Shown here: positions 1,938 through 32,816 of the stretch, piece by piece
How the letters are laid out: the number at the start of each line of letters is the position of its first letter
Numbering within the stretch: position 1 is the stretch's first letter
NCBI GenBank assembly: GCA_053919585.1
Contig: CM132787.1
Length of the DNA stretch: 64,000 bases
Strand: one strand, 5' to 3'
Source of the DNA: Euprymna scolopes
Lineage: Eukaryota
Notes under the pieces: model-generated
What the model was told of the DNA's origin: nothing
Database searches by the model: none
The model's input: the letters and a program-made list of their open reading frames with translations, nothing else
Translations under genes and position numbers: made by a program

Positions 1938-2460
1938 TTTTTTTTTTTTTTTTTTTTTTTACACAGTGATCACCACTTATCAAGGCCCGGAAGCAACTCA
2001 GGGATAAGGGTTATTGCAAGTACATTAAGTTAGTGAGGAGATTTGCTGAAGTGTTTACTTAAGGGAGCGGTTCATTAGGAATTTGTTTACATTGGACTTG
2101 AAGACATCCAAGTTGTAGTCCGGAGGGAAGCAGGCAGACGGAACAGAGTTCCACAGGCGTGCAGTTCTAAGAAAGAAGCTTTGTTCATGGAATCCGCGTT
2201 TTGATTTAGGCACAGATATAGAGTGGGGGAAATTTTTCACAGTGGATTCAGCTAGACGGGTGTTTTTCGTGAAAGATTGGCGAGGGGGGACCAGAGATTG
2301 GAGTTCAGACGAGCATCTGCCATGGAAATAATGATAAAACAAGGACATGCTCGCAACGTCTCTTCTGTGGGAGAGAGGTTGCAGGGTAGAGAAAAGGGCA
2401 TCCCCCACTAAGCCACGAAGTCTATTTTGTACTCTGTCAAGGCAGGATAGGCTGTTTTTA
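1938..2460 (-). mobile_element. 5'-truncated CR1/L2-like LINE, family 1
   Basis: Poly-T 1938-1960; ORF 2055-2477 LQPLSHRRDVASMSLFYHYFHGRCSSEL is a typical CR1-group ORF2 C-terminus. Confidence 0.88.
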
Positions 2461-3155
2461 TCTATTCTAGTTAACATAATCTCTACCTGCTAGCATAGAG
2501 TCCTAATATATAATATTGTTTGAAATGTGGTCTTTCTCGATGATTCTTAGTATTATCTTCTTAGTATTATGTGGAAGGTGTTGCATCTATTCTCTCTACG
2601 GGACTATGATTCACTGCAGTAGTTATGAGGAAATTATAGCTCATTTGAATGATGTCGCATGGTCCAATACTGGTAAATCGAGAATACGACAATGGCACGG
2701 TTAGTTTAATAAGCAAATTTACATTTGCTAACACGAAGTAGACAATAACTACAATAATGGTAACAGCAACAAACCATTATTAACAGTGTTTTGAATCTTT
2801 GCTTGATTTCTAAGCTGCGCTCTGACTGGTGTACATATTTTGTTTCTGGTTTGCCCAGTTAGAAGAAATCTCTAATGTGAGCAGAGACTTGGACTGGAGT
2901 TGATAAAAGGGACCGCATCTTCCTTAAGCCACAAAACAGCACAGCTGCCTGACTCATCCACATCACTCCTTTCAATCCCCACACTTCTCCCTGTGGACAC
3001 AAATCAAAAACCCAACTGTCCCTGGTATTGAAAAGAAGGCTTAAACATTTAACATGTTAACAGCCACACACATGCACATGGACTTATGTCATTCTAACAC
3101 GCAAACACACACACGCATACTTACTAACACACATGAACATTCTCATAATCTCTAA

Positions 3156-3885
3156 TCTATTATATAAAAGCGAAACTGTGTGTGTGTTTTTGTGTGTGTG
3201 CATGTGTGTGTTTGTGTGTCTATGTGTATGCACATTTTTTGTATGTTCGGCAAAGGCTTTTTTCAGGAGGGCACTCAGAGCAGTTACCACATCTTAAAAC
3301 TTTTTATATACTCCCTAGATTATAATATGTCCGATTTATGAAAGCAGGTCATCTCTATCTTTTAGTTGAGCGACTTTTACACGCTATTTTTGCGCTATTT
3401 CTTACTCTCGCCTGTTTGTTTGGCTTTTCCGTATAAAAGCGAAACTAAAAATCAAAAGCAAAGTGTGTTCTCGGTCGTTCATGCTGTCTAGAAGTAATGA
3501 GCTTTGATCAATGCAGGGAAAACCCGTCATATCAGACAATTGCTATTCATTTGGACACTCCCCTTTTTGTGAGGAGCTGGTTTTCCCAAACATCTTGGGA
3601 TAACAAACAAATATGCAGAAAGTGTAAAGCTTAATTGGCTCTGTGTGATTTCATTTCTCTATGGCGTGACGTTTGACCTAGAAAAGCAGACGTTTTTTAA
3701 GCGTTTAATGTCAACCATTCTCACTTCTCTGTCCTCTTAGTGTCACGGTAAGATGTCATGCTTTCTTTTCCGCCTTCGCCTTAAGGCTTCAGGTTCGAGC
3801 CTACCTGCCTACCAAAACTCTATATTTTTTTCCTACACACACACCGACAAACACCTGGGCAATGCCGGGCACCCCCCCCCGCTAG
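3156..3885 (+). mobile_element. Non-autonomous Helitron A (~730 bp)
   Basis: A|TCTATTATATAAAAGCGAAA then (TG)n-rich tract at the 5' end; hairpin cctgggcaatgccggg + CTAG|T at the 3' end; sits between A and T with no TSD. Confidence 0.75.
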
Positions 3886-4329
3886 TTATATATAAAAGGA
3901 ACATAGTTTGTGTATATGTGTGTGTGAGTTTGGTTTCTTATAGACTCCGAAACAGCTGGACCAATTTTTTTTTTAATTTCAGACAAATGTATTTTATATA
4001 TTTGGGAGTGTTCTTAAATAGGTTTTGTATCGAAATGACTCTGATAAGTATCGAAAATCAATAATCGAAAAAATCCTATTAAAGAAGAAACAATCTGATT
4101 ATTACCAAAGTAAACACTCTTATACAACCTAACATCACAAGTGCATTTGAAAAGTTTCATCACCACACAAGCAGAAGGGCCAGACATATAAAATCATCAG
4201 TAGGATTTTTGATAATACAGGGGTGCATTCAAAATGAATGTTTCTGTTTAGAGTGCAATCGAATTATAATACTTGACTTTTACAAGAATATGTGCATTTT
4301 GTTGCCATTTAATAAATGTTACAGTTTGA

Positions 4330-9679: not shown

Positions 9680-12410
9680 AAATGTCTAACCCATACTCCC
9701 CCCCCATCAAAATAAACTGAAATCGACCAAGTAGCGTTCATGATGCAAATGCATCAACAACAGCTTGCCATGCAAGAACAAATGATACACCTTATGGCAC
9801 GTTTATTCCCTGCCGAGCAACATGTACCCACACCATTTTTGTGTCACTCACATGGTGAACCTGAGCATTCATAGAATCAGACTCATCAGATGATAAACAG
9901 ATTATTTTCAAAGACGCATGGTTCTGCTACAAAGAGATGACACAGTCAGTTCACCCCACAGAACCTTGAAACAAGCTACAGTTCACGTGCAGTTCATCTG
10001 TTAACGAAATGCTGTTCAATTGGTCAACATGTCCTAAATAATGCCACAGAGGAACAACGGCTAGGATACATCAAATTTGTTGCAGTGAAATCCGTTCATC
10101 CTGACGTGTACCAACAACAATTCTTTGTCATAAAGGTGATGGGTAAACTATCACGACTTTCATTTCCTGCTTGAAGTCGCAATTGATGCACTTTCAAAAG
10201 GCAATGTGGTTGCAATAATCAACGATATACAATCATTTTCTGAGGATATGATCAAATCCCAGATGATTGCCAGCTTACGGAACATTTCCCACCAAAGTAA
10301 AATTTTGACAGAGATTAGTTCCCTGCCAAAACTAAGTGACTTAACTGAACACCTGTTAACTCTAGCACTTTTGACCGGCAGAGACTCCACAAATTGACCC
10401 AATAAAATCTGCATCATCACAAAAATTCCCACCACAGAATAAGACAAGTAATGACAACAAATGCAAAGGTTGCGGTCACAGACCACACCCAAAGGGGCGC
10501 AGGCAGTGCCCCACTTTGAGCAAGTCATGCCACAAATGTGGAAGAAAAAAACACTACTCAAATACATTTTTTTTTACAAGGTTGTCACCACTTATCAAGG
10601 CCCGGAAGCCACTCAGGGATAAGGGTTATTGTAAGTACAGTACGTTAGTGTGGATATTTAAGAGTGTCTACTTAAGAGGGCGGTTCATCAGGAATTTGTT
10701 TACATTGGACTTGAAGACATCTAAGTTGTAGTCAGGAGGGAAGCAGGCAGGCGGAACAGAGTTCCACAGGCGTGCAGTTCTAAGAATGAAGCTTTGTTCA
10801 TGGAATCTACGTTTTGATTTAGGCATAAAGAGTGGGGAAAGTTTTTGACAGTGGATTCAGCTAGATGCATGTTTTTTGTAAAAGATTAGCGAGGGGGGAC
10901 CAGAGATTGGAGTTCAGACGAGCACCTGCCATGGAAATAACGATAAAACAAAGATAGGCTTGCAACGTCTTTTCTGTGGGAGAGAGGTTGCAGGGAAGAG
11001 AAAAGGGCATCCCCCACTAAGCCACGAAGTCTATTTTGTACTCTGTCAAGGCAGAGCATTATCTAATGCCATAATGGAGAATAATCCTAATGGCAACCAG
11101 AGTGATGACACTTCTTTTATATCAACTATGAATATGCAGCCCAGATAACTAAAGGAAGAAGAGGGAATTTCACATGATGTATGCACCAACAACCAGTTCA
11201 CACTAGACCGACCCCATTCATTAATATTAAAGTCACATGGAATACGATTGTCCACAAGCACCTTAGACATTTGATGTATGTGAAACCATGAACCACTCAA
11301 TTAGCTGCTATGGCAGATACTGGGGCTGAAACCAGTACAGCTGGAGAAGATACATTGTATGATTTCGCGTACACCTCTAAACATCTATTGCGTGCTAGGC
11401 ATCAATTATGTGCCGTAAACAACACCAACCTGCTTATCATAGGAGCTCTAATCACCACAGTGACGCTTGGTGATGTAACATACTCGGAGATAATTTACAT
11501 CTGCCCAAAAATTAAGGGCCTATATATCTCACAGACGACCCTGAGAAAATTAAGGATTATCGACAACGACTTTCTAATACAAATTAGAAGTCAGATAGCC
11601 ACAACAAAAGTAGACTCTAAATCAACTAACAGTACATTAGCTCCTTGTGGTTGCCCATCCAGATTACCACCAGACAAGCTGCCATTCCCTGTGACATCTG
11701 ATTATCGCAAAGACCTAGAAAATTGGATCAAGTGTTACTTTGCCAGCAGTGCATTCAACATATGCGCACACCAAAAGTTGCAGATCATGATGGAAGAACC
11801 ACTCACCATTACATTCTTGGACAACTGCCAACCCAAAGCCATTCACAAGCTAATTCCAGTCCCCTACCACTGGAAAGAACCTGCTAAATCTCAGCTAGAC
11901 CCTGATGTTGCACTGAGCATAATTCAACCAGTGCCAGGTGAGACACCAACAACATAGTGTTCCAGAATGATCACAGTTCCCCAAAAAAAAAATGGTTTCT
12001 CATGTAGAACAGTTAACCTGCAGAATCTGAATGCAGCAACAAGACAGGAGACACACCACACACCTTCTCCTTTCAACCTTGTCAATACGATACTCCCAGG
12101 AAAAAAAGAAATCCATTCTCGATGCCTGGAATGGATATCACAGTGTTCCTCATTGCTGTGAAAGCATAGGATGCTACCATAAAAGAGTGGGGCAGATACC
12201 GATATTTGCAAGTTCCACAAGGTTTCTAAGCATCTAATGATGGCTACACAAAGAGATCCGATACCATTATGGAAGGTTTCCTTCATGTGAACCATTGTGT
12301 GGACGATTCCATTTTATGAGATGATGATATAGCACTATCTTTTTGGCACACTATTGGATACATCATGCTTTGTGCTGAAAATAGGATCGTATTCAACCCA
12401 GATGAATTCC
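9680..12410 (+). pseudogene. Decayed Gypsy-type gag-pro-RT, split by a LINE at 10567-11054
   Basis: Zinc knuckle CHKCGRKKH (~10528); protease ADTGAETS (11313); PVPYHWKE; RTVNLQNLN; LDAWNGYHS; RT CVDD (~12297); truncated near 12410. Confidence 0.85.
10567..11054 (-). mobile_element. 5'-truncated CR1/L2-like LINE, family 1, inserted in a gag zinc knuckle
   Basis: Colinear with and highly similar to 1960-2445; poly-T at 10567. Confidence 0.88.
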
Positions 12411-13557: not shown

Positions 13558-14024
13558 TGAGAATGTATTGATCTTTCTAGGTGAAATAATATTGATTATT
13601 CTTATTTTCTGGTGAATTGAACAATCACTCAATTAACAACGAAAAGTGGAATCCCAAGGTTTGCAGCAAATTTGATGCTGATTAAGCCAACTTTAAGATT
13701 GCTTTATAATATGACTCTCCTAAAACTCTAACGATTGTACTGCTTCTTTGCCCTTAGATGGTGATATATGATTCATATATTGATATCGGAAACACAACAA
13801 ATATCTACGTTTCAAACTTTAACTTCTGCTCCATACTGAAAATGTCAATAAAGTAAGTAGAAAAAAGGCAAAAATCCTGCGTTGGATTTCTAGTCAGACC
13901 AGACAGAACCACACCAAAAGTTACGACAATCTTGGATAAAATAAATGAAAACCGTTTCATGTGATCCACAAAAATGACGCAACTATCGTTAGTATGAGAT
14001 TCAGGATGGAGGCTCCTCAGAAAA

Positions 14025-14426
14025 TGTAAAAGTGAGAAATTACTGTAAGAAAAAAATGTAGGGAAAAATTCAAGATGGCGCCCGACTCTCTCTTTAACAC
14101 GGTAAGATATCCTCAACACGGCACAAGAAGCAACAGCCACACGATTCCCCAGCCAACTCAATCGTCACTCACCCACGTCTTTCCCCTCACCCGCTTTTAT
14201 CGTCGTTCTAGGTCGGCTAAATTTGCATATTCCGAGAATTCGTGTGACTTTGCGAGACATCATACTTTACAAAAGACGGCGGTCGCCATCTTGGTCCCTC
14301 TTTTCTATTTTTGGTCGGTAACGCTGAGCTGGTCTCGAGGTAAGTCTTTTTCCCCTCATCCGTCTCTCCCACGTACCCACACAACACGCAAACACGCGGG
14401 CGCTTATCTCCTGGATGCACGTTACA
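14025..14426 (-). repeat. 3' LTR (402 bp)
   Basis: tgtaaaagtg...gcacgttaca, adjacent to the PPT at 14427-14436. Confidence 0.93.
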
Positions 14427-16478
14427 CTCCCCCCTGATCTGATGATCACATAGAGAGCACTGGGGGGGTGGCCTTTTAGTGCGTGTGCTTCTGCGAAGAG
14501 GTACATTCACTGTTTCAGATTCGGGCTCTGGATCTGGTTCCGCCTCATCAGATGAAGTATCGCTATCAGTCTCTGGAAGGGGCTCACTGAATCCGTGCAT
14601 CGGCAGCTCATCGCTAGACGCTTCACTGCTTTCTTCTGTAGTTGTATGACGCACCTCGGTAGCTGGGCGAAGATCTCGCACATGTCGTGGGGTTCCATCG
14701 ACCAAAACAGACTGCTGGCTAATCACTCCAGATATGTGTCCTCGCTTAAACTTGTCGGTGCACCGATTTCCTGGAGGCCGCACCCACACTGGATCTCCCA
14801 CTTCATATCTGTTATATGTTCCCTTGTCGGTTGGCTGCGTAGTGTTGATTCCCTTCACTCCGACTTGGTACGTGTAAATAGCATTCGCAGGTGCGGTTGA
14901 AGGGGACGTCCCGTCCTTTGGCGTAATGTTGTACCAATATGTTGCTTCCGCAATAGTACATCGCTTCCTGGCAGCAATTCTCTTGATGCTGCGATGGCTT
15001 CTTTCAGCAATGCCATTTCCTGATGGCACATGCGCACATCGCAACCGTAGACGGACGCCCCACTCATCTAACAACTGCCGGACTTGCTGGCTACAAAACG
15101 CTGCATCATTGTCAGTCAGGAGCTCTTCCGGCGCACCTCGCTCAAAAAAAATGGATGATAGGTGGCGAACAACATTTGCTGAATCCTGTCTGGTCATCTG
15201 CCGCCACACCGCAAATCTCGTAGGCCCGCAATCAATGAGAGTTAGAAAGGGCTTGCCACTGTAATGGGTAATATCCATGGCCAGCCGCTGCCACACACTC
15301 TCAACTTCCAAGCGACCCTTCTGCCATCGCTCTGGTGCAGGATCAATAGACTGGCAAGCCTCACAATTTCTGACGATCTGTCTGACATCCATCTTGGTCA
15401 CTGCTGGGTATGCACGCCTCACAAAATAAAGGGTCCTCTTGATACCCGGATGTCCGCTCTGTGCATGAATTTTTTGTATTTGACATGGGTCGATTGCAAC
15501 TGCACAAGATCGAGCAGTAATCTCCATTCCCATCTTCGCGGCTTCATACCATTTGTGAGGTACACGGGTCAGTTGGTCAGCACGATTACAATGTGATGGC
15601 ACCAGAGTGACGCTCAGTGATAGCCCATACTCAGATACCAGGTTTTTTAGCGTGTCTAGCCTTCTCCGTATTAACATTTCGCTTGCTGCCTTGGTACGGA
15701 TTCGTGTCCGTCCTGAAAGTGTGTCAGACACCCAGTGGTAGACACAGAGAGAATCTGTGTACAAGGTCAACTTCTTAGACTGCCATTGCAGGGCCAGATT
15801 TACCCCCTTTACAACAGCGTCCAGCTCTGCCAGGTTGATATGCTGAGAATCTGTTACGGGCCGCAGCCAACATGCATCCTCGAACACGTTTCCTCCTTGC
15901 TCCAACGATACTCCCAACGCCAAAGAACTGGCATCAACCCACACACCTACGTTGTCTCCGTTAACACACCACCGCCCACAGGCAGGGTCCTTCTTGTTCA
16001 CTCTCTCCAGTGTCTCCTTAATCATCAGAGTTAGTAGGACATCATCGGATATGTCATCCCAACCCGTGGTTGTTAAATTTGCTCTGCGTTTAATCACACC
16101 AACAGCTGCGCGGAGCCAGCCACAGACTGGTAAGTGACCAACAAGTTTTCCACACCAAGAAAAAACGGTCCGCCTTGTAACGAGGTTGGGGATGCTTGGA
16201 ATTTCACTGCCACGCCTCCATTGTAGGGTGCCATCCTCTTCATAAACATCCAATCCCAATACACGTGCTCCTTCCCTTAAACGTTCGGGATTCTTGCATT
16301 CCAGACCAAACTGAGCCAACTTTTCTTTGACACACGACGCAGACTGTACATCTTCATTGACGTATACGTCATCAATGTAAGCTGACGTTGAGTCCCTCAT
16401 GGGCTTTTCTTGGGACAATACTGTGTTGACAATAGTCTTCATGATCTGTGGTGCCACATTTAGGCCGAAGCCAAGGCG
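14217..16478 (-). CDS. pol: 5'-truncated pol: RT C-terminal half, RNase H, HHCC + DDE integrase, SH3-like region and acidic tail
   Basis: 746-aa open frame preceded in frame by RLGFGLNV; YIDD; VDASS/NLAELDAV/TDS/NRADQL; HAQSGHPG...CEAC; MDITH/TDND/GIAER; no stops; gag, protease and RT N-terminus absent. Confidence 0.9.
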   Translation of the reverse strand, partial: RLGFGLNVAPQIMKTIVNTVLSQEKPMRDSTSAYIDDVYVNEDVQSASCVKEKLAQFGLECKNPERLREGARVLGLDVYEEDGTLQWRRGSEIPSIPNLVTRRTVFSWCGKLVGHLPVCGWLRAAVGVIKRRANLTTTGWDDISDDVLLTLMIKETLERVNKKDPACGRWCVNGDNVGVWVDASSLALGVSLEQGGNVFEDACWLRPVTDSQHINLAELDAVVKGVNLALQWQSKKLTLYTDSLCVYHWVSDTLSGRTRIRTKAASEMLIRRRLDTLKNLVSEYGLSLSVTLVPSHCNRADQLTRVPHKWYEAAKMGMEITARSCAVAIDPCQIQKIHAQSGHPGIKRTLYFVRRAYPAVTKMDVRQIVRNCEACQSIDPAPERWQKGRLEVESVWQRLAMDITHYSGKPFLTLIDCGPTRFAVWRQMTRQDSANVVRHLSSIFFERGAPEELLTDNDAAFCSQQVRQLLDEWGVRLRLRCAHVPSGNGIAERSHRSIKRIAARKRCTIAEATYWYNITPKDGTSPSTAPANAIYTYQVGVKGINTTQPTDKGTYNRYEVGDPVWVRPPGNRCTDKFKRGHISGVISQQSVLVDGTPRHVRDLRPATEVRHTTTEESSEASSDELPMHGFSEPLPETDSDTSSDEAEPDPEPESETVNVPLRRSTRTKRPPPQCSLCDHQIRGECNVHPGDKRPRVCVLCGYVGETDEGKKTYLETSSALPTKNRKEGPRWRPPSFVKYDVSQSHTNSRNMQI

Positions 16479-16820
16479 GACCGTTTTTTCTTGGTGTGGA
16501 AAACTTGTCTTACCGTGTTAAAGAGAGAGTCGGGCGCCATCTTGAATTTTTCCCTACATTTTTTTCTTACAGTAATTTCTCACTTTTACATTAGTATTGC
16601 TATTTTCTGTTGCGTTTCTTAACACGTGCATATCCACATGGTGTGTGTGTGCGCGCACACAACAGCTTTAACGTAACTGTTTTGGTGCTTATATAGGTCA
16701 GCCCCCATGGCGACCACACCGAACAAAAGCCGGGTTCCTGAAACTAAAAACGAAAAAAAAACTATTTTATGTACATTATTAGCATCATCATTGTCTCAAT
16801 CTTAGGATTTTTTCGGTTAG

Positions 16821-16827
<7 letters not shown>

Positions 16828-16868
<41 letters not shown>

Positions 16869-16970
16869 AACAACATCAGATTGATTCCTTTGACTTTAGA
16901 CATTCAAGCTGTATCTTAACATTTTCGCCGTTCCTAACAGGCAAGCTTTTTGCAAAATTGTAAAACAAAT
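16828..16970 (-). mobile_element. R4/Dong-like non-LTR retrotransposon 3' tip with (TAA)n tract
   Basis: Minus strand 16970-16896 reads ICFTILQKACLLGTAKMLRYSLNV*, resembling the R4/Dong C-terminal LQKxxLLGTAxILR motif; ~30-bp UTR, then (TAA)~13. Confidence 0.7.
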
Positions 16971-17186
16971 TGTCTTATTATAATTATTAATTAGGTTTCA
17001 AGGACTTCAGAAAATAAGGACAACGAAAGAAACGACTTCGCGTCTACACCGATTGACTTTCCGTGCATGTAAACAATAATAAAACCAAATTGTTTGGTTT
17101 TTCGTCAGAAGGTTGATTTTTTAACGTAAGGAAATATTTATTGGAAGAACGGGTTCTTGAAGCCTAATTGGTTCGCCGAAATACCT

Positions 17187-17588
17187 TGTAAAAGTGAGAA
17201 ATTACTGTAAGAAAAAAATGTAGGGAAAAATTCAAGATGGCGCCCGACTCTCTCTTTAACACGGTAAGATATCCTCAACACGGCACAAGAAGCAACAGCC
17301 ACACGATTCCCCAGCCAACTCAATCGTCACTCACCCACGTCTTTCCCCTCACCCGCTTTTATCGTCGTTCTAGGTCGGCTAAATTTGCATATTCCGAGAA
17401 TTCGTGTGACTTTGCGAGACATCATACTTTACAAAAGACGGCGGTCGCCATCTTGGTCCCTCTTTTCTATTTTTGGTCGGTAACGCTGAGCTGGTCTCGA
17501 GGTAAGTCTTTTTCCCCTCATCCGTCTCTCCCACGTACCCACACAACACGCAAACACGCGGGCGCTTATCTCCTGGATGCACGTTACA
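17187..17588 (-). repeat. LTR in the 5' position (402 bp), no PBS adjacent
   Basis: Matches 14025-14426; on the minus strand it is followed by aggtatttcg rather than a TGG primer-binding site. Confidence 0.93.
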
Positions 17589-19019
17589 GAAAAGTCCAAG
17601 AGGATGGCTGTGACAGTTTATTATAAGTTCAAGGATCAATCAAATCAAAACACCTATTGTTTTACATGGATTTAATATTCCAAACTGGAGGATGAATTCA
17701 ATAAAAAGACATAAACATGTTTTACTGTAACACACACATGAGGTGATCGTTTTATTTACATTAGGGAGAAAAGCAAAAAAAAAAAAAAAAAAAAAAAATA
17801 GAATCCCCCTACAGAAATTTACAACAGAGAAAAAGAACTAAGATCAGATAACTCTAATTCATTGTTATAATAGAACAAGGAATACTTGATCCCTTTTCAA
17901 ATATGAAACAAGGGAAATAACAAAGCAGAAAACACGCTCGATTAAAAAAAAAAAAGTGAAAGAAATGCAGTTGTGAAATAAAATAAAATAGCGCACGAAA
18001 AAAGTTAAAGAAATTTAGTTTTGATATAAATTCGACATAAGTTAGCTGTTGATTCCAATTTGTAGTTGACGTAATTCAATGGATAAATGACCAATGAAAA
18101 CCTTCTGCGCATGGGCCGTAAGGGAGCAGTCCTTGGAAAGCCAATGTTTACGCAGGGTCCACAACTCGTCATCAAGTACCATTACTCTTAACTATAATAA
18201 TTTTCTACTCGATTATTTTTCGTAATTTTTGGATATATTACTATTTTCGACATGCAATGTTGCTTTTGCTTAAAACTACATATTAAAAAAAAATCGATCT
18301 GTCGACTCCATCTTAACAAGCACTCGTGAATCTAACACTATTTTTGCACGTACTTATGAAAACTATGAAAACATTCAATAGAAAACCATCATTATTGTCA
18401 GGAATACGAATCTATTCTAATGTCAAATAATTGTGTTCGTTTGTAAATGAGTTATCGGAAGAATAAATTTTAGGGTAAATATTTCAGGTCCTAAATTTGG
18501 AGTTAACCAAGTTATTCCCCTTGACTTACTAACGCGCCAGAGTTAGTTCCCCTGTTTTGGTTTTCATAAGATGGGAAATAAAAATCAGCAGAAACTATGA
18601 CATTTTTAATATTTGACTAAAATAACAAGAGTTATTTCCCTGTTTTGTCAAGTATTTTTTTCTTATTTTCGTGTTCACTATTTTTCTTTAGCTATATTAC
18701 AGGATTTAACATTCTTATAACGTACCCTTCTAAAAATTTCTATAATTTTTTTGTATAATGATATACTCTGTTTCGTTATTATTTATATGTGGATGGTAAT
18801 CGATGAAATACAATAGACACATGTGAGATCATTGATCCTTTATTTAGGGCAAAGACACAGAGACCTAGCTCAAGGCAGTGTAAACCCTAATGCAACCGCT
18901 TCTTCCCTTTTCTGAAAAAATAAAAGAATTAGAAAGAAAAGAAAAATCTGATAAAAGGTAACAGAAAAAAATATGATAGTGACCTAGGCATTCATTGGGC
19001 TTGTGCAACATACTTTTCT

Positions 19020-20095: not shown

Positions 20096-20159
20096 AGCTG
20101 ATGTATTCCTGTGATCCAGCATCGCTAGGTGTGGATCAGTCTCATCATCCATCACTTAT

Positions 20160-22050
20160 CATCCCACACTATGCACAATTACCTGAGCTGGGCATACTAA
20201 TCATCATCGATGATGTCTCCAAGGCAATTAACAAACTCCCACTGGGAAATGCTCCAGATACTGATTCCATCTCAGGCGAAAAAATCAAGAGTGGCAAGTC
20301 CTCTCTCCTCAAGCCATTATACCAACTCTTGCTACGTTGTCGGAAAGAAGACACTGTTCCTCAGGACATGAGAAACGCAAACATAGTCACCCAATATAAA
20401 AATAAAGGGGACCGCAGTGACTGCAATAATTATAGGGGAATCTCACTACTGAGCATCGTTAACCAACTGTTTGCTTGCATCATTTTGACGAGACTGCAAG
20501 TTCTTGCTGAGAGAATATATTCTGAATCACAGCGTGGCTTTCACTCTCAATAATCTTCTCACTACACCAACTCCAGAAGTGCAGAGAACAAAACAGACCA
20601 TTGTATTTTGCCTTCATTGATCTTACTAAGGCGTTTGACCTAGTCATTAGAGATGAACTATTTAAGATGCTGCCTCTCACTGGTTGCCCTCCCAAGAGTC
20701 ATTTCATGATGGTATGATGAGCACCATGCTATTCAACGGAGACACCTTTGCTGAATTTGGTGTAAAAAATGGTGTCAAATAGGGATGTGTGCTTGCACCT
20801 ACGTTATTTGGCATTTTCTTTGCCATTCTCCTGAGATATGCCTTCAATTCATCAGAAGACAGAGTTTACCTTCATTCCAGATCGGATGGCTGCCTCTTCA
20901 GCATCAACCGTCTTCAATCCAGGACCAAAGTCCAACAATTTAACATTAGGGATCACCTGTTTCTTGATGATGTGGTGGTAACATCTATCACTAAAGAAGG
21001 ACTTCAAAAACTCATGGAGAAATTTTCCAAAATTTGCAAAGATGTCTTCAAGTCCAACATAAACAAATTCCTGATTGATCGCTCCCTTAAGTAAGACATT
21101 TTATCAAATCTCCAATACCAACTATTACTACGATATTATCCCATTGATTATTGTACACACAATAACTCTTATCCCCGAGTGGCTTCCGGGCCTTGATAAG
21201 TGGTGATCCCCCCCCCCCATGTAAAAAAAAAAAAAAGAATTCAGCCTCACCATCAGCCTGAAGAAAATCCAGGTCATGAGCCAAGGAATCTCATCATCTC
21301 CAATCATCACTATGAATGGTCAGTGCTTAAACGTAGTCCATCAATTCCAATAGCTCAGGTCTACAACCTCAAACATCTCTTGATGTAGTGCTCAACAAGT
21401 GCATCAGAAAGGCATCCACCACTCTTACAAAATTGACAATTAGAGTGTGGGAAAATAAATATCTCACCATCTTTACAAAAGTGACCGTTTACATGGTCTG
21501 TGTCACCAGTATCCTTCTGTATGGAAGTGAAACACGGACAACTTACAACCACCATGAACGGAAACTGAACGCATTTCACATGCATAATCTACAGAGAATT
21601 CTTGGAATTTTTTTTTAGGGATAAAGCTGCAAACAATGCTGTGCTTGCAAGGACTGATATCCCCCTCCATTTTCACCCTTCTTCGCCAAAAACGCCTACG
21701 CAGTACAGGCTATGTGCACCACATGAACAATGGGAGAATCCCAAAAGATATTCTCTACAGTGAACTCACTACTGGCAAAAGGAAAATTGGTCGTCCTCAT
21801 CTCCGCTATGTCGACGTGTGCAAACGCGACATGAAATCATGTGATATTGATCCTATCAGCTGGGAGTTCAAAGCTAAAGTCCACAACATCTGGAGACAAT
21901 CGGTAACCAAAGGCTTGACCACTGGGGAAAGCTTCATTGCAGAACAGGCGGAGACCAAAAGACGATTTAGGAAGGCCAGTCAACAAAATTCAGCAGACCA
22001 CCAACTCGATACACTGACCTTTACCTGCGATGTCTGCAACTAACAATGTA
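20160..22050 (+). mobile_element. Decayed RTE-clade LINE (RT to C-terminus)
   Basis: PQDMRNANIV...KNKGDRSDCNNYRGISLLSI; FIDLTKAFD; GVK*GCVLAPTLF; LLYGSET; RIPKDILYSEL...GRPHLRY. Confidence 0.9.
21043..21233 (+). mobile_element. Short family-1 LINE 3' end nested in the RTE
   Basis: Family-1 3' UTR + poly-A; aaaga TSD (21038-21042 and 21234-21238); removal restores the RTE frame CKEFSLTISLKK. Confidence 0.88.
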
Positions 22051-22247: not shown

Positions 22248-24478
22248 AGAAAGCTGTTCAAGTGTTGTCTTAAGGAGAATTGCTTCCCATCACCCTGGAA
22301 AACCTCATTGGTATGCCCTGCATTTAAGAATTCAGGTGATTGGTTATCTTCCTTTCAGTACAGACCAATGAGTCTTCTGTGCGTCATGAGTAAGTTGCTG
22401 GAATCTGTGTTAAATAGAGGAGTGGTCAACCACATCAGCAAAAATAACATTCTTAGTGAAATGCAATATGGTTTCCATTCTGCTAGATCTACAGCAGATG
22501 TGCTAACGGTTATATCTCATAGGATTAGTGAATCTCTTGACAAAGGCTTCCTTTCCAGGGCAATTGCTCTTGACATATCGAAGGCCTTCGACAAGGTATG
22601 GCATAAGGGCCTACTTCACAAGATTTCCAGCTATGGTATCACTGGAAATGTTTTCTCAATCATTAAATCATTTCTCTCCGATAGGTTCATAAGAGTAGTG
22701 GTTGATGGGCAGAAATCAGAAGCCCACAGTATTAATGCTGGAGTCCCTCAGGTGTCCATCCTGGGCCCAACTCTCTTCCTGATCTACATCAATGATCTCC
22801 CAAAACACATACTTAAATCATTCGTAGACATCTATGCTGATGACACGACCATCTATGGCAACACATCAAAGGCCGTAAAAGACAAAGTTCTCTCTAATTC
22901 TCTCTCCTCTGATCTTGAGCACGTGGTACAATGGGGGAAGAGGTGGCTGGTCACTTTTAATGCATTCAAAACCAAACTTCTATCTTTACATCATCAATGC
23001 TCTGATCTCCGTTTGGCATCAATTGAAATGGATGGCTCTCGTCTTGAGGCGGCTCCATGTTTTGACAAGCTTCTGGGCTTGACCTTTACTCATTTAATCA
23101 TATTAAATAAAGAAGTAGTCAACCACCTCAGCAGAAATAACCTTTTTAGTGACATGTAATATGGTTTCTGTTCTGTTAGATCTACAACAGATGTGCTAAC
23201 GGTTATATCTCATAGGATTTGCAAAACTCTCGATAGAGGCTTCGTTTCTGGGGCAATTGCTCTTGATATATCAAAGGCCTTTGTTAGGGTATGGCATAAA
23301 GGTCTACTTGACAAGATCTCCAGCTACAGTATAGCTGGAAAGGTCTTCTCAATTACTAAGTCATTTCTCTCTGATAGGTTCATAAGAGTAGAGGTTGATG
23401 GGCAGAAATCAGAAGCTCATAGAATTAATGCTGGAGTCCTACAGGAGTCCATATTGAGACCAACTCTCTTCCTGATCTACATCAATGATCTTCCAAATCA
23501 CATCCTAAGATCATTCATAGACATTTATGCTGACAATACTACCATCTACATAAACACACTAAAGGCTGTAAATGACCAAGTTCTCTCTGATTCTCTCTCC
23601 TCTGATCTTGAGCATATGGTACAATGGGGAAAGAGGTGACTGGTTACTCTTAATGCTTCTAAAACCAAGCTTCTATCTTTACATCATCAACGCTCCGATC
23701 CCCATCTGGCATCGATTGAAATGAATGGCTCTTGTCTTGGGAAATCTTCATTTTTTGACAAGCTTCCGGGCTTGACCTTTACTCCTGATCTGAAATGGAA
23801 CACGTATATTAAATCTGTTGCGAAGGTCACTGATAAAATGGTGGGATTCTTCTACTGCTCCAGAAGATATCTCACTGTTGATGCAATTTTCCACCTATAT
23901 AAAAGCCAGGTATGTCCAAAGATGGAGTACTGCTGCCACATCTGGGCAGGAGCTGCTAAAAACTGCCTTGACAGAGTTCAAAATAGACTTGGTAGCCTAG
24001 TGGGGGATGCGCTTTTCTCTTCCCTGCAACTTTTTCCCCACAGAAGAGACATTGCGAGGCTGTCTCTGCTTTATTGTTGGCAAGTGCTCGTTTGAGCTCC
24101 AATCTATGGTCCTCCCTCACCAAATTTTCACAAAAAACACTCGTCTAGCTGAAACCACTATCAATAATTTCCCTCACTCTTTATCTGCATCTAAACCTAG
24201 ATTCCATGAACAAAGCTTCTTTCTTAGAACTGCACGCCTGTAGAACTCTGTTCCGTTTGTCTGCTTTCCAGCTGACTACAATTTGGTCGTCTTTAAGTTC
24301 TACATAAATAAATTCTTATTGAACCATCCTCTTAACTAATCCAATTTACTAAATTTTCACAACTAACGATTACTACGATATTATCCTATTGACTACTGTA
24401 CATTCATTAACTCTTCTCCTCGAGTGGCATCCAGGCCTTGATAAGTGGTGACTCCTTTGTAAAAAAAAAAAAAAAAAA
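22248..24478 (+). mobile_element. CR1/L2-like LINE, family 1; decayed, with RT region present twice
   Basis: YRPMSLL, QYGF, LDISKAFDKVWH, GVPQ, YADD; 22410-23091 repeated in diverged form at 23103-23784; family-1 3' UTR + poly-A. Confidence 0.92.
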
Positions 24479-28390: not shown

Positions 28391-28533
28391 NNNNNNNNNN
28401 NNNNNNNNNNNNNNNNNNNNNNNNNNNNNNNNNNNNNNNNNNNNNNNNNNNNNNNNNNNNNNNNNNNNNNNNNNNNNNNNNNNNNNNNNNNNNNNNNNNN
28501 NNNNNNNNNNNNNNNNNNNNNNNNNNNNNNNNN
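28391..28533. other. Assembly gap (N run)
   Basis: 143 N. Confidence 1.
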
Positions 28534-29502
28534 NCTTTCTCTCTAATAATATAGGAACAAAAATTCCATAAGCTGACATGCAAAAAAAAATTACAAAATG
28601 CTCTTCCTTAACCCTATCGCTAACTCTAAATCTTAGTGGCAATATACCCCACCTCATATTAGAACATGCATTCCCTTAATCTTATCACTAACTCTAAGTC
28701 AGGATTGCAGTAGACAAAACTACAAATTCCCTTAAACACACACACACACACACACAATTGATTTTAAAGGAATTAATGGCCAAGATTTAACTGAAAACAA
28801 AAATTTTGTTATATATCCTTAAAAAACATTAATTGATCATTTTAACTTTACAAAACTGATTCCCTACTCTAAAATCTAAAATATATATTTTTTTGTTTTA
28901 TTTAGATTTACCCTCAAGTTTTTCTGCCTATTTAGATATAATCACCTAAAAAAAATAGAATCTGTTTTCTTTTTGGTTTTCAACTAATCATGAGCTATTT
29001 ATTAACTATACGCCCGGTGTTGCCAAGAACTTTTTTTTATTTCATTATGATTTTGCTTTTTAAATCATTTTTTTCTTTTCTGTTTTTTTTTTTGTATCTT
29101 TTTTTATCAAATTAAGTTTTATTCCTTTTTTGAATAGTTTTTTTAAATTAAATTAACTAATTACATATTATATAGTTATTAATTGAAGTAAATTGCTATA
29201 TCTAAAATTGGAGTGCTTATTTAGAATTACAGTTATTTTTTTTTTTAATTTCGAGTTTTCTAAGTTGCCATAAAAACATTTTTCATTAAAACGTTTTTTC
29301 ATGTGTAAAAACACATTTTTTTTTTCTTTTTTACGCTTTTATCTTTCAAAGAAAATCAAAAACTAATCAAAAACTTATAAAGCATTATGATAAACTGGTC
29401 TTTATAACCATGGGCCCTATCATCTTTCACCATTTTTTTTTTTTTTTGCACATATTAAATAAATAGTAGTAATATAATAAATAGAAATAAAATAAGGTAA
29501 AT

Positions 29503-30224: not shown

Positions 30225-31840
30225 AACATCAATAAGCGCATGCTATCATAAAAAACCTTAACACTTCAAAAACATGTGGACCCGATCTCATCCCAGCTGT
30301 GCTATTAAAAAAGTGCTCAGCCGAAGTAGCTCCAGTTCTTTCCAAACTCTACAACAAATGCCTTAATGAATCTTGCTTTCCGGGCTGTTGGAAAACTGCT
30401 TTTGTGGTACCAGTTTCAAGAATTCTGGCGAAAGAACTGACCCATTAAATTATCGCCCTATTAGCCTCCTCCCACTTTTTGCCAAAATATTTGAGACCTT
30501 AATTAACCATGCTCTAGTCCATCACTTTACAGATGCTAAACTTCTGACTGGCAAACAATATGGATTTAGACAAGCCCGTTCCACAACAGACATCCTAACT
30601 GTAATCTCTGGACGTATATACCATTCACTGGACAAAGCGGGGGAGGGCAGAGCAGTAGCTCTAGATATATCTTAGGCATTTGACAGGGTATGGCATGAGG
30701 GTCTCCTCAGGAAAATTAGATCATATGGTATCACTGGTAGAATACTTAACATAATTAAATCCTTCTTAGATAAGAGAAAAATCCAGGTTGTCCTCGACGT
30801 TCATGCATCTAAACAATATGATATAAATGCGGGAGTGCCCCAGGGATCTATCCTTGGACCTCTACTTTTCCTGATATTCATAAATGATCTCCCCGACAAA
30901 ATTTCCTCTGAGATGGGTACATATGCTGATGACACCACACTCTATAACAGGCATGACAGGAAAACAAATGAACACATATCTAAAGAAATGGCAGAAACAC
31001 TAGAGGATGACCTCCAATCTGTAATGGAATGAGGACAAAAATGGATGGTCACTTTCAATGCTGCCAAGACTAAACTAGTTTCATTCAATAATTACAAGAA
31101 ACCTTCTCTACCACCTATAGCAATGGCCAACGACTCTTTATCTGAGAGTACATCTTTCAAACTCCTTGGCCTAACGTTCACAGGAAACATGAGTTGGAAC
31201 AATTACATTGAAGGCATTGCCAGGGCCGCTGCAAGGAAGGTAGGCTCTCTATACCGTGCTAGAAAACTACTAACACCTGAAAGTATCCAGTACCTCTATA
31301 AGGCATTCATTCGCCCATGTATGGAGTATTGCTGTCACATTTGGGCTGGTGCATCTGCTACTAGTCTCTTGCTCCTTGACAAGGTTCAAAAGAGAATCGC
31401 AAATCTGATAGGCTCTGAACTGGCATCTAAGCTTCAGCCTCTGTCCCATCGACGAAACGTTGCATTCCTCTGCCTGGTGAATGCTCTGACGAACTGCAAG
31501 CACTTGTGCCCCCACGACGTGAACACCCTCGATAAACCCGACAGGCTGCAAAATCCCACCCCCACACTGTAGAGATCCCTAGATGTAAAAGATCTTTCTA
31601 CTCCAGTAGTTTTTTCCCCAGAACCGCTAGACTTTGGAATTCCATTCCAGGTCCCTGCTTCCCCAAATGTACTGACATGCAGAAGTTCAAGTGCAACGTG
31701 AACTGACATCTTGCTGCCCAAATCCCTACATAGTACCCCAGTAGATGTTTCCCCTGATAGTAGCCCCCTACACCAAAGTGGCAATGTGCCTTGTTTGGGG
31801 TGAAAATGTAATAAAAAAAAAATAAATAAAAATAAAAAAA
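30225..31840 (+). mobile_element. CR1/L2-like LINE, family 2; decayed RT to poly-A
   Basis: NYRPISLL, QYGFR, LDIS*AFDRVWH, GVPQGSILGP, YADD, MEYCCHIW; A-rich tail. Confidence 0.92.
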
Positions 31841-32682: not shown

Positions 32683-32816
32683 NNNNNNNNNNNNNNNNNN
32701 NNNNNNNNNNNNNNNNNNNNNNNNNNNNNNNNNNNNNNNNNNNNNNNNNNNNNNNNNNNNNNNNNNNNNNNNNNNNNNNNNNNNNNNNNNNNNNNNNNNN
32801 NNNNNNNNNNNNNNNN
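32683..32816. other. Assembly gap (N run)
   Basis: 134 N. Confidence 1.

Follow-up and report, generated by a model that had tools for sequence, protein, structure and literature searches.

Priming from the 5' end of tRNA-Phe as a candidate source of inversions and host-DNA capture in a long terminal repeat retrotransposon family of Euprymna scolopes

Reverse transcription of long terminal repeat (LTR) elements can be primed in different ways. In Tf1/sushi self-priming, an 11-nt stretch at the 5' terminus of the RNA pairs with a primer-binding site (PBS) adjoining the LTR and is cut to provide the 3'-OH, and in the retroviral scheme the tRNA primer is copied into the plus strand, with the PBS reverting to the tRNA sequence in about half of the progeny. 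The accessible part of Kojima 2024 (PMC10886601) lists tRNA priming at 3' ends and anticodon loops only. Here, we describe an element on the minus strand (14025-17588) of a 64,000-nt window of Euprymna scolopes contig CM132787.1 (G000:C5:9920001-9984000 of a 5.9-Gb assembly), the family of which carries a PBS complementary to the opposite, 5' end of tRNA-Phe. We propose, with a probability of about 0.5, that a widespread invertebrate LTR lineage primes from bases 1-12 of tRNA-Phe, that plus-strand transfer fails in about one of 11 insertions because the PBS is short, and that the free end then primes on any RNA in the particle, giving inversions and captured host DNA behind the PBS.

Comparable rearrangements are known from other systems. 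In LINE-1 (long interspersed nuclear element 1) twin priming, the RNA is copied from two 3' ends, and the head-to-head joining of the products through microhomology creates an inversion; in retroviral read-through transduction, host sequence next to the 3' LTR enters the particle on the element RNA. Pulsinelli and Temin in 1991 and Dunn, Olsen and Swanstrom in 1992 reportedly found retroviral rearrangements with a 5' junction at the PBS end, some of them with cellular inserts; their material is said to have been cultured vectors or unintegrated DNA, and the products largely deletions.

The composite in the window is a very young LTR retrotransposon copy, the front half of which has been exchanged for DNA from C7 of the same assembly and two inverted pieces of the element itself. 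Its features are listed below in window coordinates (RT, reverse transcriptase).

14020..14024, no strand: target-site duplication GAAAA, left copy (sequence comparison)
14025..14426, minus strand: 3' LTR, 402 bp, TG...CA, identical to the 5' LTR
14427..14439, minus strand: polypurine tract adjoining the 3' LTR (from the sequence; same in sister copies)
14427..16478, minus strand: retained 3' part of pol, sister coordinates 2019-4070 (comparison with sisters)
16141..16177, minus strand: RT stretch, source of the inverted copy, sister coordinates 2320-2356
16472..16508, plus strand: inverted RT piece, reverse complement of 16141-16177
16508..16590, plus strand: inverted LTR end, LTR positions 320-402, stopping at the terminal CA
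16591..17177, plus strand: captured host DNA, 587 bp, donor C7:165433024-165433625
17175..17186, minus strand: 12-nt PBS, complement of nucleotides 1-12 of tRNA-Phe(GAA), one change at 17184
17187..17588, minus strand: 5' LTR, 402 bp
17589..17593, no strand: target-site duplication GAAAA, right copy

Much of this architecture had been recognised in a first-pass annotation made from the sequence alone, and our comparisons bear it out. The two LTRs are identical at 402 of 402 positions and lie between clean GAAAA duplications (14020-14024 and 17589-17593). Native pol resumes at 16478, where the break had been placed, and the remnant behind it (14427-16478) comprises the second half of RT, DUF7047, RNase H, and integrase. 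The inverted RT piece (16472-16508) matches the reverse complement of 16141-16177 at 37 of 37 positions (E 8e-13 within the window) and joins pol through a 7-nt microhomology (16472-16478); the next piece, joined through 1 nt, is an inverted copy of 14107-14025 (83/83) that stops at CA and carries the same 7-T allele as the copy's own LTRs. The interior had also been suspected to be non-standard. This proved correct, because full-length sisters, which differ from one another by a few bases, are 4472 bp long and the window copy lacks their bases 415-2018 (the gag-protease-RT half). In the 2454 bp that it keeps, it differs from the nearest sisters once.

Other claims required revision. The annotation had taken 16591-17186 as foreign, the PBS as missing, and the host piece as bracketed by two LTR ends. 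The segment 16591-17177 is indeed C7 DNA, whereas 17175-17186 is the family's PBS with one change, which was overlooked because it matches a tRNA 5' end and not a 3' end. Only the left end of the host piece adjoins an LTR end; its right end adjoins the PBS end, and the piece has no target duplication of its own. Counted from the PBS side, the four joins share 3, 2, 1, and 7 letters. These junctions bear on aberrant multi-end integration, which had been offered as one origin and in which integrase would have joined two LTR ends to a host fragment later carried to C5. One host end does adjoin a precise CA, as this origin would have it; the other joins the PBS, 12 nt inside the element and with 3 shared letters, and the left LTR piece measures only 83 nt. 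Together with the missing duplication, the retention of the PBS between host piece and LTR contradicts multi-end integration and makes it extremely improbable. Taken alone, the composite is a copying accident without sign of spread, present as one copy in the assembly.

All sisters carry the 12-mer directly after the 5' LTR, without a spacer. Its complement equals bases 1-12 of tRNA-Phe(GAA), the one tRNA with which the PBS was compared; the longest match to this tRNA is these 12 nt from position 1, and complementarity to its 3' end was not found. The tRNA-matching start has 695 genomic matches, and tRNA-Phe was called in five of the eight loci retrieved. Among 62 normal-junction copies, 31 carry the tRNA-matching allele and 31 an allele with one different base, for which no tRNA-like match exists genome-wide (three looser loci are not tRNAs); both alleles occur inside one sublineage. 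Half of the copies thus have the tRNA sequence, as in the retroviral scheme, and an even split would be expected from a PBS heteroduplex of mismatched template and copied primer. The complementarity is a direct observation, and from the 31:31 split and the covariation across the lineage described below we infer that tRNA-Phe bases 1-12 very likely serve as the primer. The split would then be a natural record of a primer copied and inherited.

The family shares with Tf1/sushi a short 5'-terminal RNA stretch, a PBS adjoining the LTR, and the need for a cut; the Tf1/sushi primer is the element's own RNA, whereas the primer here matches a host tRNA. Self-priming of the Tf1 type is excluded as far as sequence can show, the primer being absent from the element's own LTR (no 6-mer) and found in 0 of 31 relatives. 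As in copia and Ty5, described in the accessible part of PMC10886601, the primer would be a cut tRNA and not a mature 3' end; those elements, which belong to the Copia superfamily, prime at the anticodon loop, whereas the cut predicted here lies after base 12 and the domain order is of Gypsy type. A search of the literature found no report of tRNA 5'-end priming, with most subscription papers and Repbase notes outside its coverage, and the 5'-terminal 12-nt tRNA primer may be the new part of this system. If it is real, it would be a fourth way of priming LTR reverse transcription, beside tRNA 3' ends, anticodon-loop halves, and self-priming; such PBSs would escape any PBS finder restricted to tRNA 3' ends, and very short 5' tRNA fragments would be tied to germline transposition.

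Two side observations concern the PBS and its tRNA. The change at 17184 is private to the window copy and lies opposite tRNA base 10, which is often methylated in tRNAs; a recurrent error at a modified base was considered and rejected, since 0 of the 62 normal copies vary there. Large tRNA-Phe gene arrays lie on C18 near 100.1-100.3 and 105.4-105.5 Mb and on C28 near 101.7 Mb, one of them with a 219-bp period.

The same type of PBS is found well outside this genome. The pol protein has at least 796 relatives, the named ones from nematodes and crustaceans, and relatives about 56-86% identical come from invertebrates (Trichinella, Trichuris, a barnacle, a crab, and prawns). Of 77 metagenome loci, 34 lie on contigs that end too close upstream and were left out, and 43 were scored. 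The motif AGCTA-N4-GGC is present in 35 of these 43, 1627-2128 nt before the YxDD motif, and in 32 it stands directly after ACA, compared with 1/43 and 0/43 in two controls. The motif complement, GCC-N4-TAGCT, has the shape of tRNA bases 1-12. Its middle is variable (the exact 12-mer occurs in 10 of the 77 relatives), the base following the 12-mer is free, and all 35 sequences differ downstream. The most frequent variant is identical to the first bases of a real tRNA-Phe (L241), in a comparison that did not extend to the hosts' own tRNAs. In three contigs with both LTR ends, the motif begins at the first base after the LTR. The strict motif is missing from 8 of the 43, four of which have a near variant. 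By this count among distant relatives, the tRNA-5'-end PBS is a lineage-wide type. Single-protein scans of metagenome and viral contigs returned no loci, and neither did an alignment scan of viral contigs. Further PBS variants, including a possible 13-mer and other acceptor stems, were seen in L167, L194, L195, L197, L204, L209, L210, and L211 and may point to other tRNAs or hosts.

A census of 5' junctions in the young subfamily showed that the composite is not isolated. Three exact-pattern searches, which would miss truncated PBSs and some normal-starting junctions, recovered 70 young 5' junctions, of which 62 were normal, one had a point change, and seven were rearranged. The rearranged copies represent six events, or about one in 11 insertions, L035 and L036 being one duplicated locus (an 8.1-kb tandem duplication at C22:4881237-4892233 that holds one rearranged copy twice, with the same flanks). 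All seven leave the element at the last PBS base. Inverted element pieces occur in five of the six events and in none of 63 normal-junction copies (Fisher p 5e-7), several of which hold plain deletions elsewhere. The tRNA-matching PBS allele is present in all six events (p 0.016-0.027), so that two marks of an error at plus-strand transfer, the PBS-end junction and the tRNA allele, are found in 6/6. A 5-bp duplication flanks five of the six events and 55 of the 61 sister copies with both ends found; the young copies with both ends but without it are L021, L090, L107, and L111.

In four sister events, inverted element sequence follows the PBS through 5-7 shared letters. All inverted pieces adjoin the PBS and derive from the part 5' of the resumed sense sequence, a region that these copies have otherwise lost, which argues that the PBS end primed on RNA not yet copied by the minus strand and then met the stalled minus strand head to head. 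One event re-joins the neighbouring positions 1861/1862, like cut RNA, and at one junction the PBS base was retained although the template base opposite it does not match, as expected of a primer. The element's only 7-nt inversion site was used by two events, and its 6-nt plain-deletion site by none. The twin-priming pattern fits all four of these inversions: as in LINE-1, two 3' ends would copy RNA and be joined head to head by microhomology. The LINE-1 primers are the two cut ends of the target site, whereas here they would be the element's minus-strand end and the PBS end inside the particle.

A second foreign capture at the same PBS base was found in L089 (5096-5451, C24). It consists of 356 bp of LINE sequence, made up of two oppositely oriented 3' pieces with a 31-nt fold-back. 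The 3' part of this LINE family covers roughly 0.5-1% of the sampled DNA, and no perfect donor was present among 40 scored of 6327 candidates. Compared with the retroviral transfer errors, the events in this family are germline copies, arise about once in 11 insertions, and are all inversions or captures, with no plain deletions. The capture belongs to a known error class, which in this family proves to recur in the germline and gives LTR elements a way to take up host DNA within an intact pair of LTRs; the fixed PBS-end junction can be searched for in any genome. Within a literature coverage that left out most subscription papers, we found no matching report of inversions or capture at plus-strand transfer in LTR elements, and the accessible part of PMC12789967 contains nothing on aberrant transfer.

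The source of the captured host DNA, which the first-pass annotation had expected elsewhere in the genome, was located at G000:C7:165433024-165433625 (L002 1501-2102). Between the two sequences there are 2 substitutions in 572 bp and a microsatellite difference of 15 bp; 2 letters (CA) are shared at the left join of the host piece and 3 (GCC) at its right join. The donor was likely another haplotype, because the captured allele diverges more than the element part (2/572 against 1/2454; p 0.02) and because a contig of run X1 is 1 letter off the window over a stretch where C7 is 2 off. No evident gene was seen at the donor locus in open reading frame (ORF) lists inspected by eye without a family search. 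Directly behind the right breakpoint of the donor (L002 2103-2450), a non-LTR endonuclease end followed by a long TTA-rich tail was recognised by eye.

Because six events of the family break at the last PBS base, we place the event at plus-strand transfer; that the composite was made during reverse transcription at this step, we hold with good confidence. Serial template switching that captured host DNA, as the first-pass annotation had suggested, accordingly stands in its reverse-transcription form; its break-repair form, which is less likely, leaves both the fixed breakpoint and the PBS allele bias without an explanation. From the PBS, the pieces run in one direction, in the order host, LTR 402 to 320, and 2356 to 2320, which points to a single sense template with host DNA behind a precise LTR end. 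Such a template would probably have arisen by read-through transcription of a sister copy, which is predicted for the C7 site on another haplotype. In support of this, the join of LTR and host DNA falls at the precise CA, where integrase would have placed it, and the score of the predicted C7 target is in the range of real ones (39th percentile of 56 true sites).

The proposed course is as follows. A 12-nt 5' piece of tRNA-Phe would prime minus-strand synthesis, its 3'-OH at base 12 perhaps arising by RNase H cleavage as in Tf1, which is a guess. The minus strand would stall at sister position 2019. Plus-strand strong-stop DNA, ending at tRNA base 1, would fail to find its partner, and its end would prime by 3 matching bases, 587 nt into the read-through tail; here, the junction is observed and the template is presumed. 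RT would then copy back through the host sequence into U5/R, skip to 2356, and copy to 2320. The two 3' ends would anneal by 7 bases, both strands would be completed, and integrase would insert the product normally at C5, where the 5-bp duplication is seen. Unlike in read-through transduction, the captured piece lands inverted behind the PBS, and the parent copy is not in the assembly. We give this whole course, including the read-through transcript, an even chance; the read-through template is its least certain part.

Several observations weigh against this reading, some of them by favouring another. The parent copy at C7 is a prediction and is missing from the assembled haplotype: neither at the donor nor within 20 kb of it does the assembly contain a family LTR, where the annotation had suggested looking for neighbouring LTR ends, and the LTR-end/host junction occurs once in the whole assembly, in the window copy, so that a search for further copies of the composite found none. 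The CA shared with the donor would be a coincidence under read-through (about 15%; CA precedes the duplication in 17 of 112 symmetrised target sites). The two inverted pieces share 1 letter at the jump between them, which ends at LTR 320/321 and not at the inferred transcription start (about 253-260). In the census, L034 and L035 have the first junction in common and may belong to a single lineage, which would leave five events, and the rearranged copy L090 lacks the 5-bp duplication.

Moreover, the window copy, unlike the sisters, has kept the regions from which its inverted pieces derive, and a fold-back on its own DNA fits these pieces as well. Under this alternative, plus-strand transfer failed in the same way and synthesis went the other way round. 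The stalled minus strand folded onto itself over 7 bases, was extended by 30 nt, moved to its own U5 region, and ran off its 5' end at CA; a 2-base clamp then held it on free C7 RNA or DNA, of which it copied 587 nt before meeting the PBS end through 3 bases. This route fits the letters as well as the read-through route does, and it accounts for the CA in common with the donor as well as for the precise end. Both inverted pieces would come, in one direction, from DNA that the minus strand already held, the 7-T allele equals the copy's own, and no sister copy at C7 would be required; RTs do extend 2-nt terminal duplexes, according to the accessible part of PMC3035444. The route has its cost: the number of non-homologous joins rises from three to four, and free nucleic acid must come from a C7 locus without an evident gene. 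In the four sister inversions, furthermore, the pieces draw on regions uncopied by the minus strand, so that there the PBS end was the primer. We consider the fold-back a real but unlikely possibility.

Two further points suit copying after integration. The inverted LTR match extends 2 letters past the LTR, to 14023 and thus into the copy's own target duplication (85/85; chance about 0.1), which gives a 4-letter overlap with the donor. L089 sits inside another copy (83-90% alike) of the LINE family that it captured, within the captured region, and its LINE pieces end at no LTR end. These points keep alive a repair after integration, in which a normal or half-finished C5 copy broke internally and host polymerase-theta-type joining mended it, with nearby DNA and C7 as templates for the inserts. 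Short fold-backs and 1-7 nt microhomologies are typical of such joining, and the composite has a 30-nt fold-back and microhomologies in that range. Repair does not, however, predict a breakpoint at the PBS end in 6/6 events, the absence of inversions from 63 normal copies, the tRNA allele in 6/6, or an origin of inverted pieces in regions now missing from the sister copies, and we regard it as improbable.

Finally, no read or contig was listed across any of the four junctions, as would be the case for an assembly or library chimera. The reads comprised one contig set and three raw runs at about 0.3-fold depth per run, which is uninformative on junctions; at this coverage, the host piece had almost no raw depth, which neither supports nor refutes it. 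The junction at the exact PBS end is common to five other events on other contigs, the duplication is clean, and the host piece differs from the assembled donor allele. One X1 contig starts matching at 17587, as expected of an empty site, and another leaves the window at 17177, as the native donor would. A chimera is therefore very improbable.

With respect to classification, the element has the TG...CA LTRs, the polypurine tract, and a target duplication (5 bp) within the 4-6 bp range of Ty3/Gypsy (Metaviridae) elements. One full-length sister has a gag with two zinc knuckles and the pol order protease-RT-RNase H-integrase, with which the window remnant is consistent; its 4472 bp hold two sense-strand frames of at least 150 aa, gag and pol, and no env. 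A retrovirus or endogenous retrovirus was rejected for the lack of an env gene, Ty1/Copia because the integrase does not precede RT, and BEL/Pao because no Pao-type Pfam domains (Peptidase_A17, DUF1758/1759) were among the families at E 0.01. The nearest solved structures in the Protein Data Bank (PDB) are retroviral (E 1e-10 or weaker). By its predicted domain order, we provisionally assign the element to the Gypsy type. The family departs from usual Ty3/Gypsy elements in its PBS, which matches tRNA bases 1-12 without a spacer, in its compact 4.5 kb, and in the presence of DUF7047 after RT.

Some features of the LTR were noted in passing. Several alleles cluster at LTR positions 253-260 (window about 14167-14174) among 64 5' LTRs, 30 nt behind a TATA-like box, and the U3/R boundary likely lies there. 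Because of this cluster, a transcription start at LTR 320, which would make the 83-nt piece the whole R-U5, was rejected; RNA folding gave no clear hairpin boundary at LTR 320. Compared with the older LTR, the young one has been shortened by a deletion at position 320/321, between short direct repeats (window 14106-14107 and 17268-17269; L084, L087), and this deletion site is the exact end of the inverted 83-nt piece. An abundant palindromic miniature inverted-repeat transposable element (MITE) of about 600 bp has 51 bp (LTR positions 321-371) in common with this LTR and 72 bp with a long-LTR subfamily (L080-L083, L058-L079). The shared pattern has 1647 matches, and 17 of 24 loci are MITEs; loose ends at 17268 come mostly from this MITE, and their reading as a major LTR subfamily was rejected. 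The shared stretch is possibly an older capture into the LTR.

Elsewhere in the window, decayed LINE fragments or a two-copy repeat of at least 300 nt lie at about 20100-21200, 10570-11050, 23960-24470, 31161-31832, and 22410-23402, and stretches of N at 28391-28534 and 32683-32816. A 42-bp satellite occupies 36624-64000 with 656 copies (95% matches) and reaches the window end.

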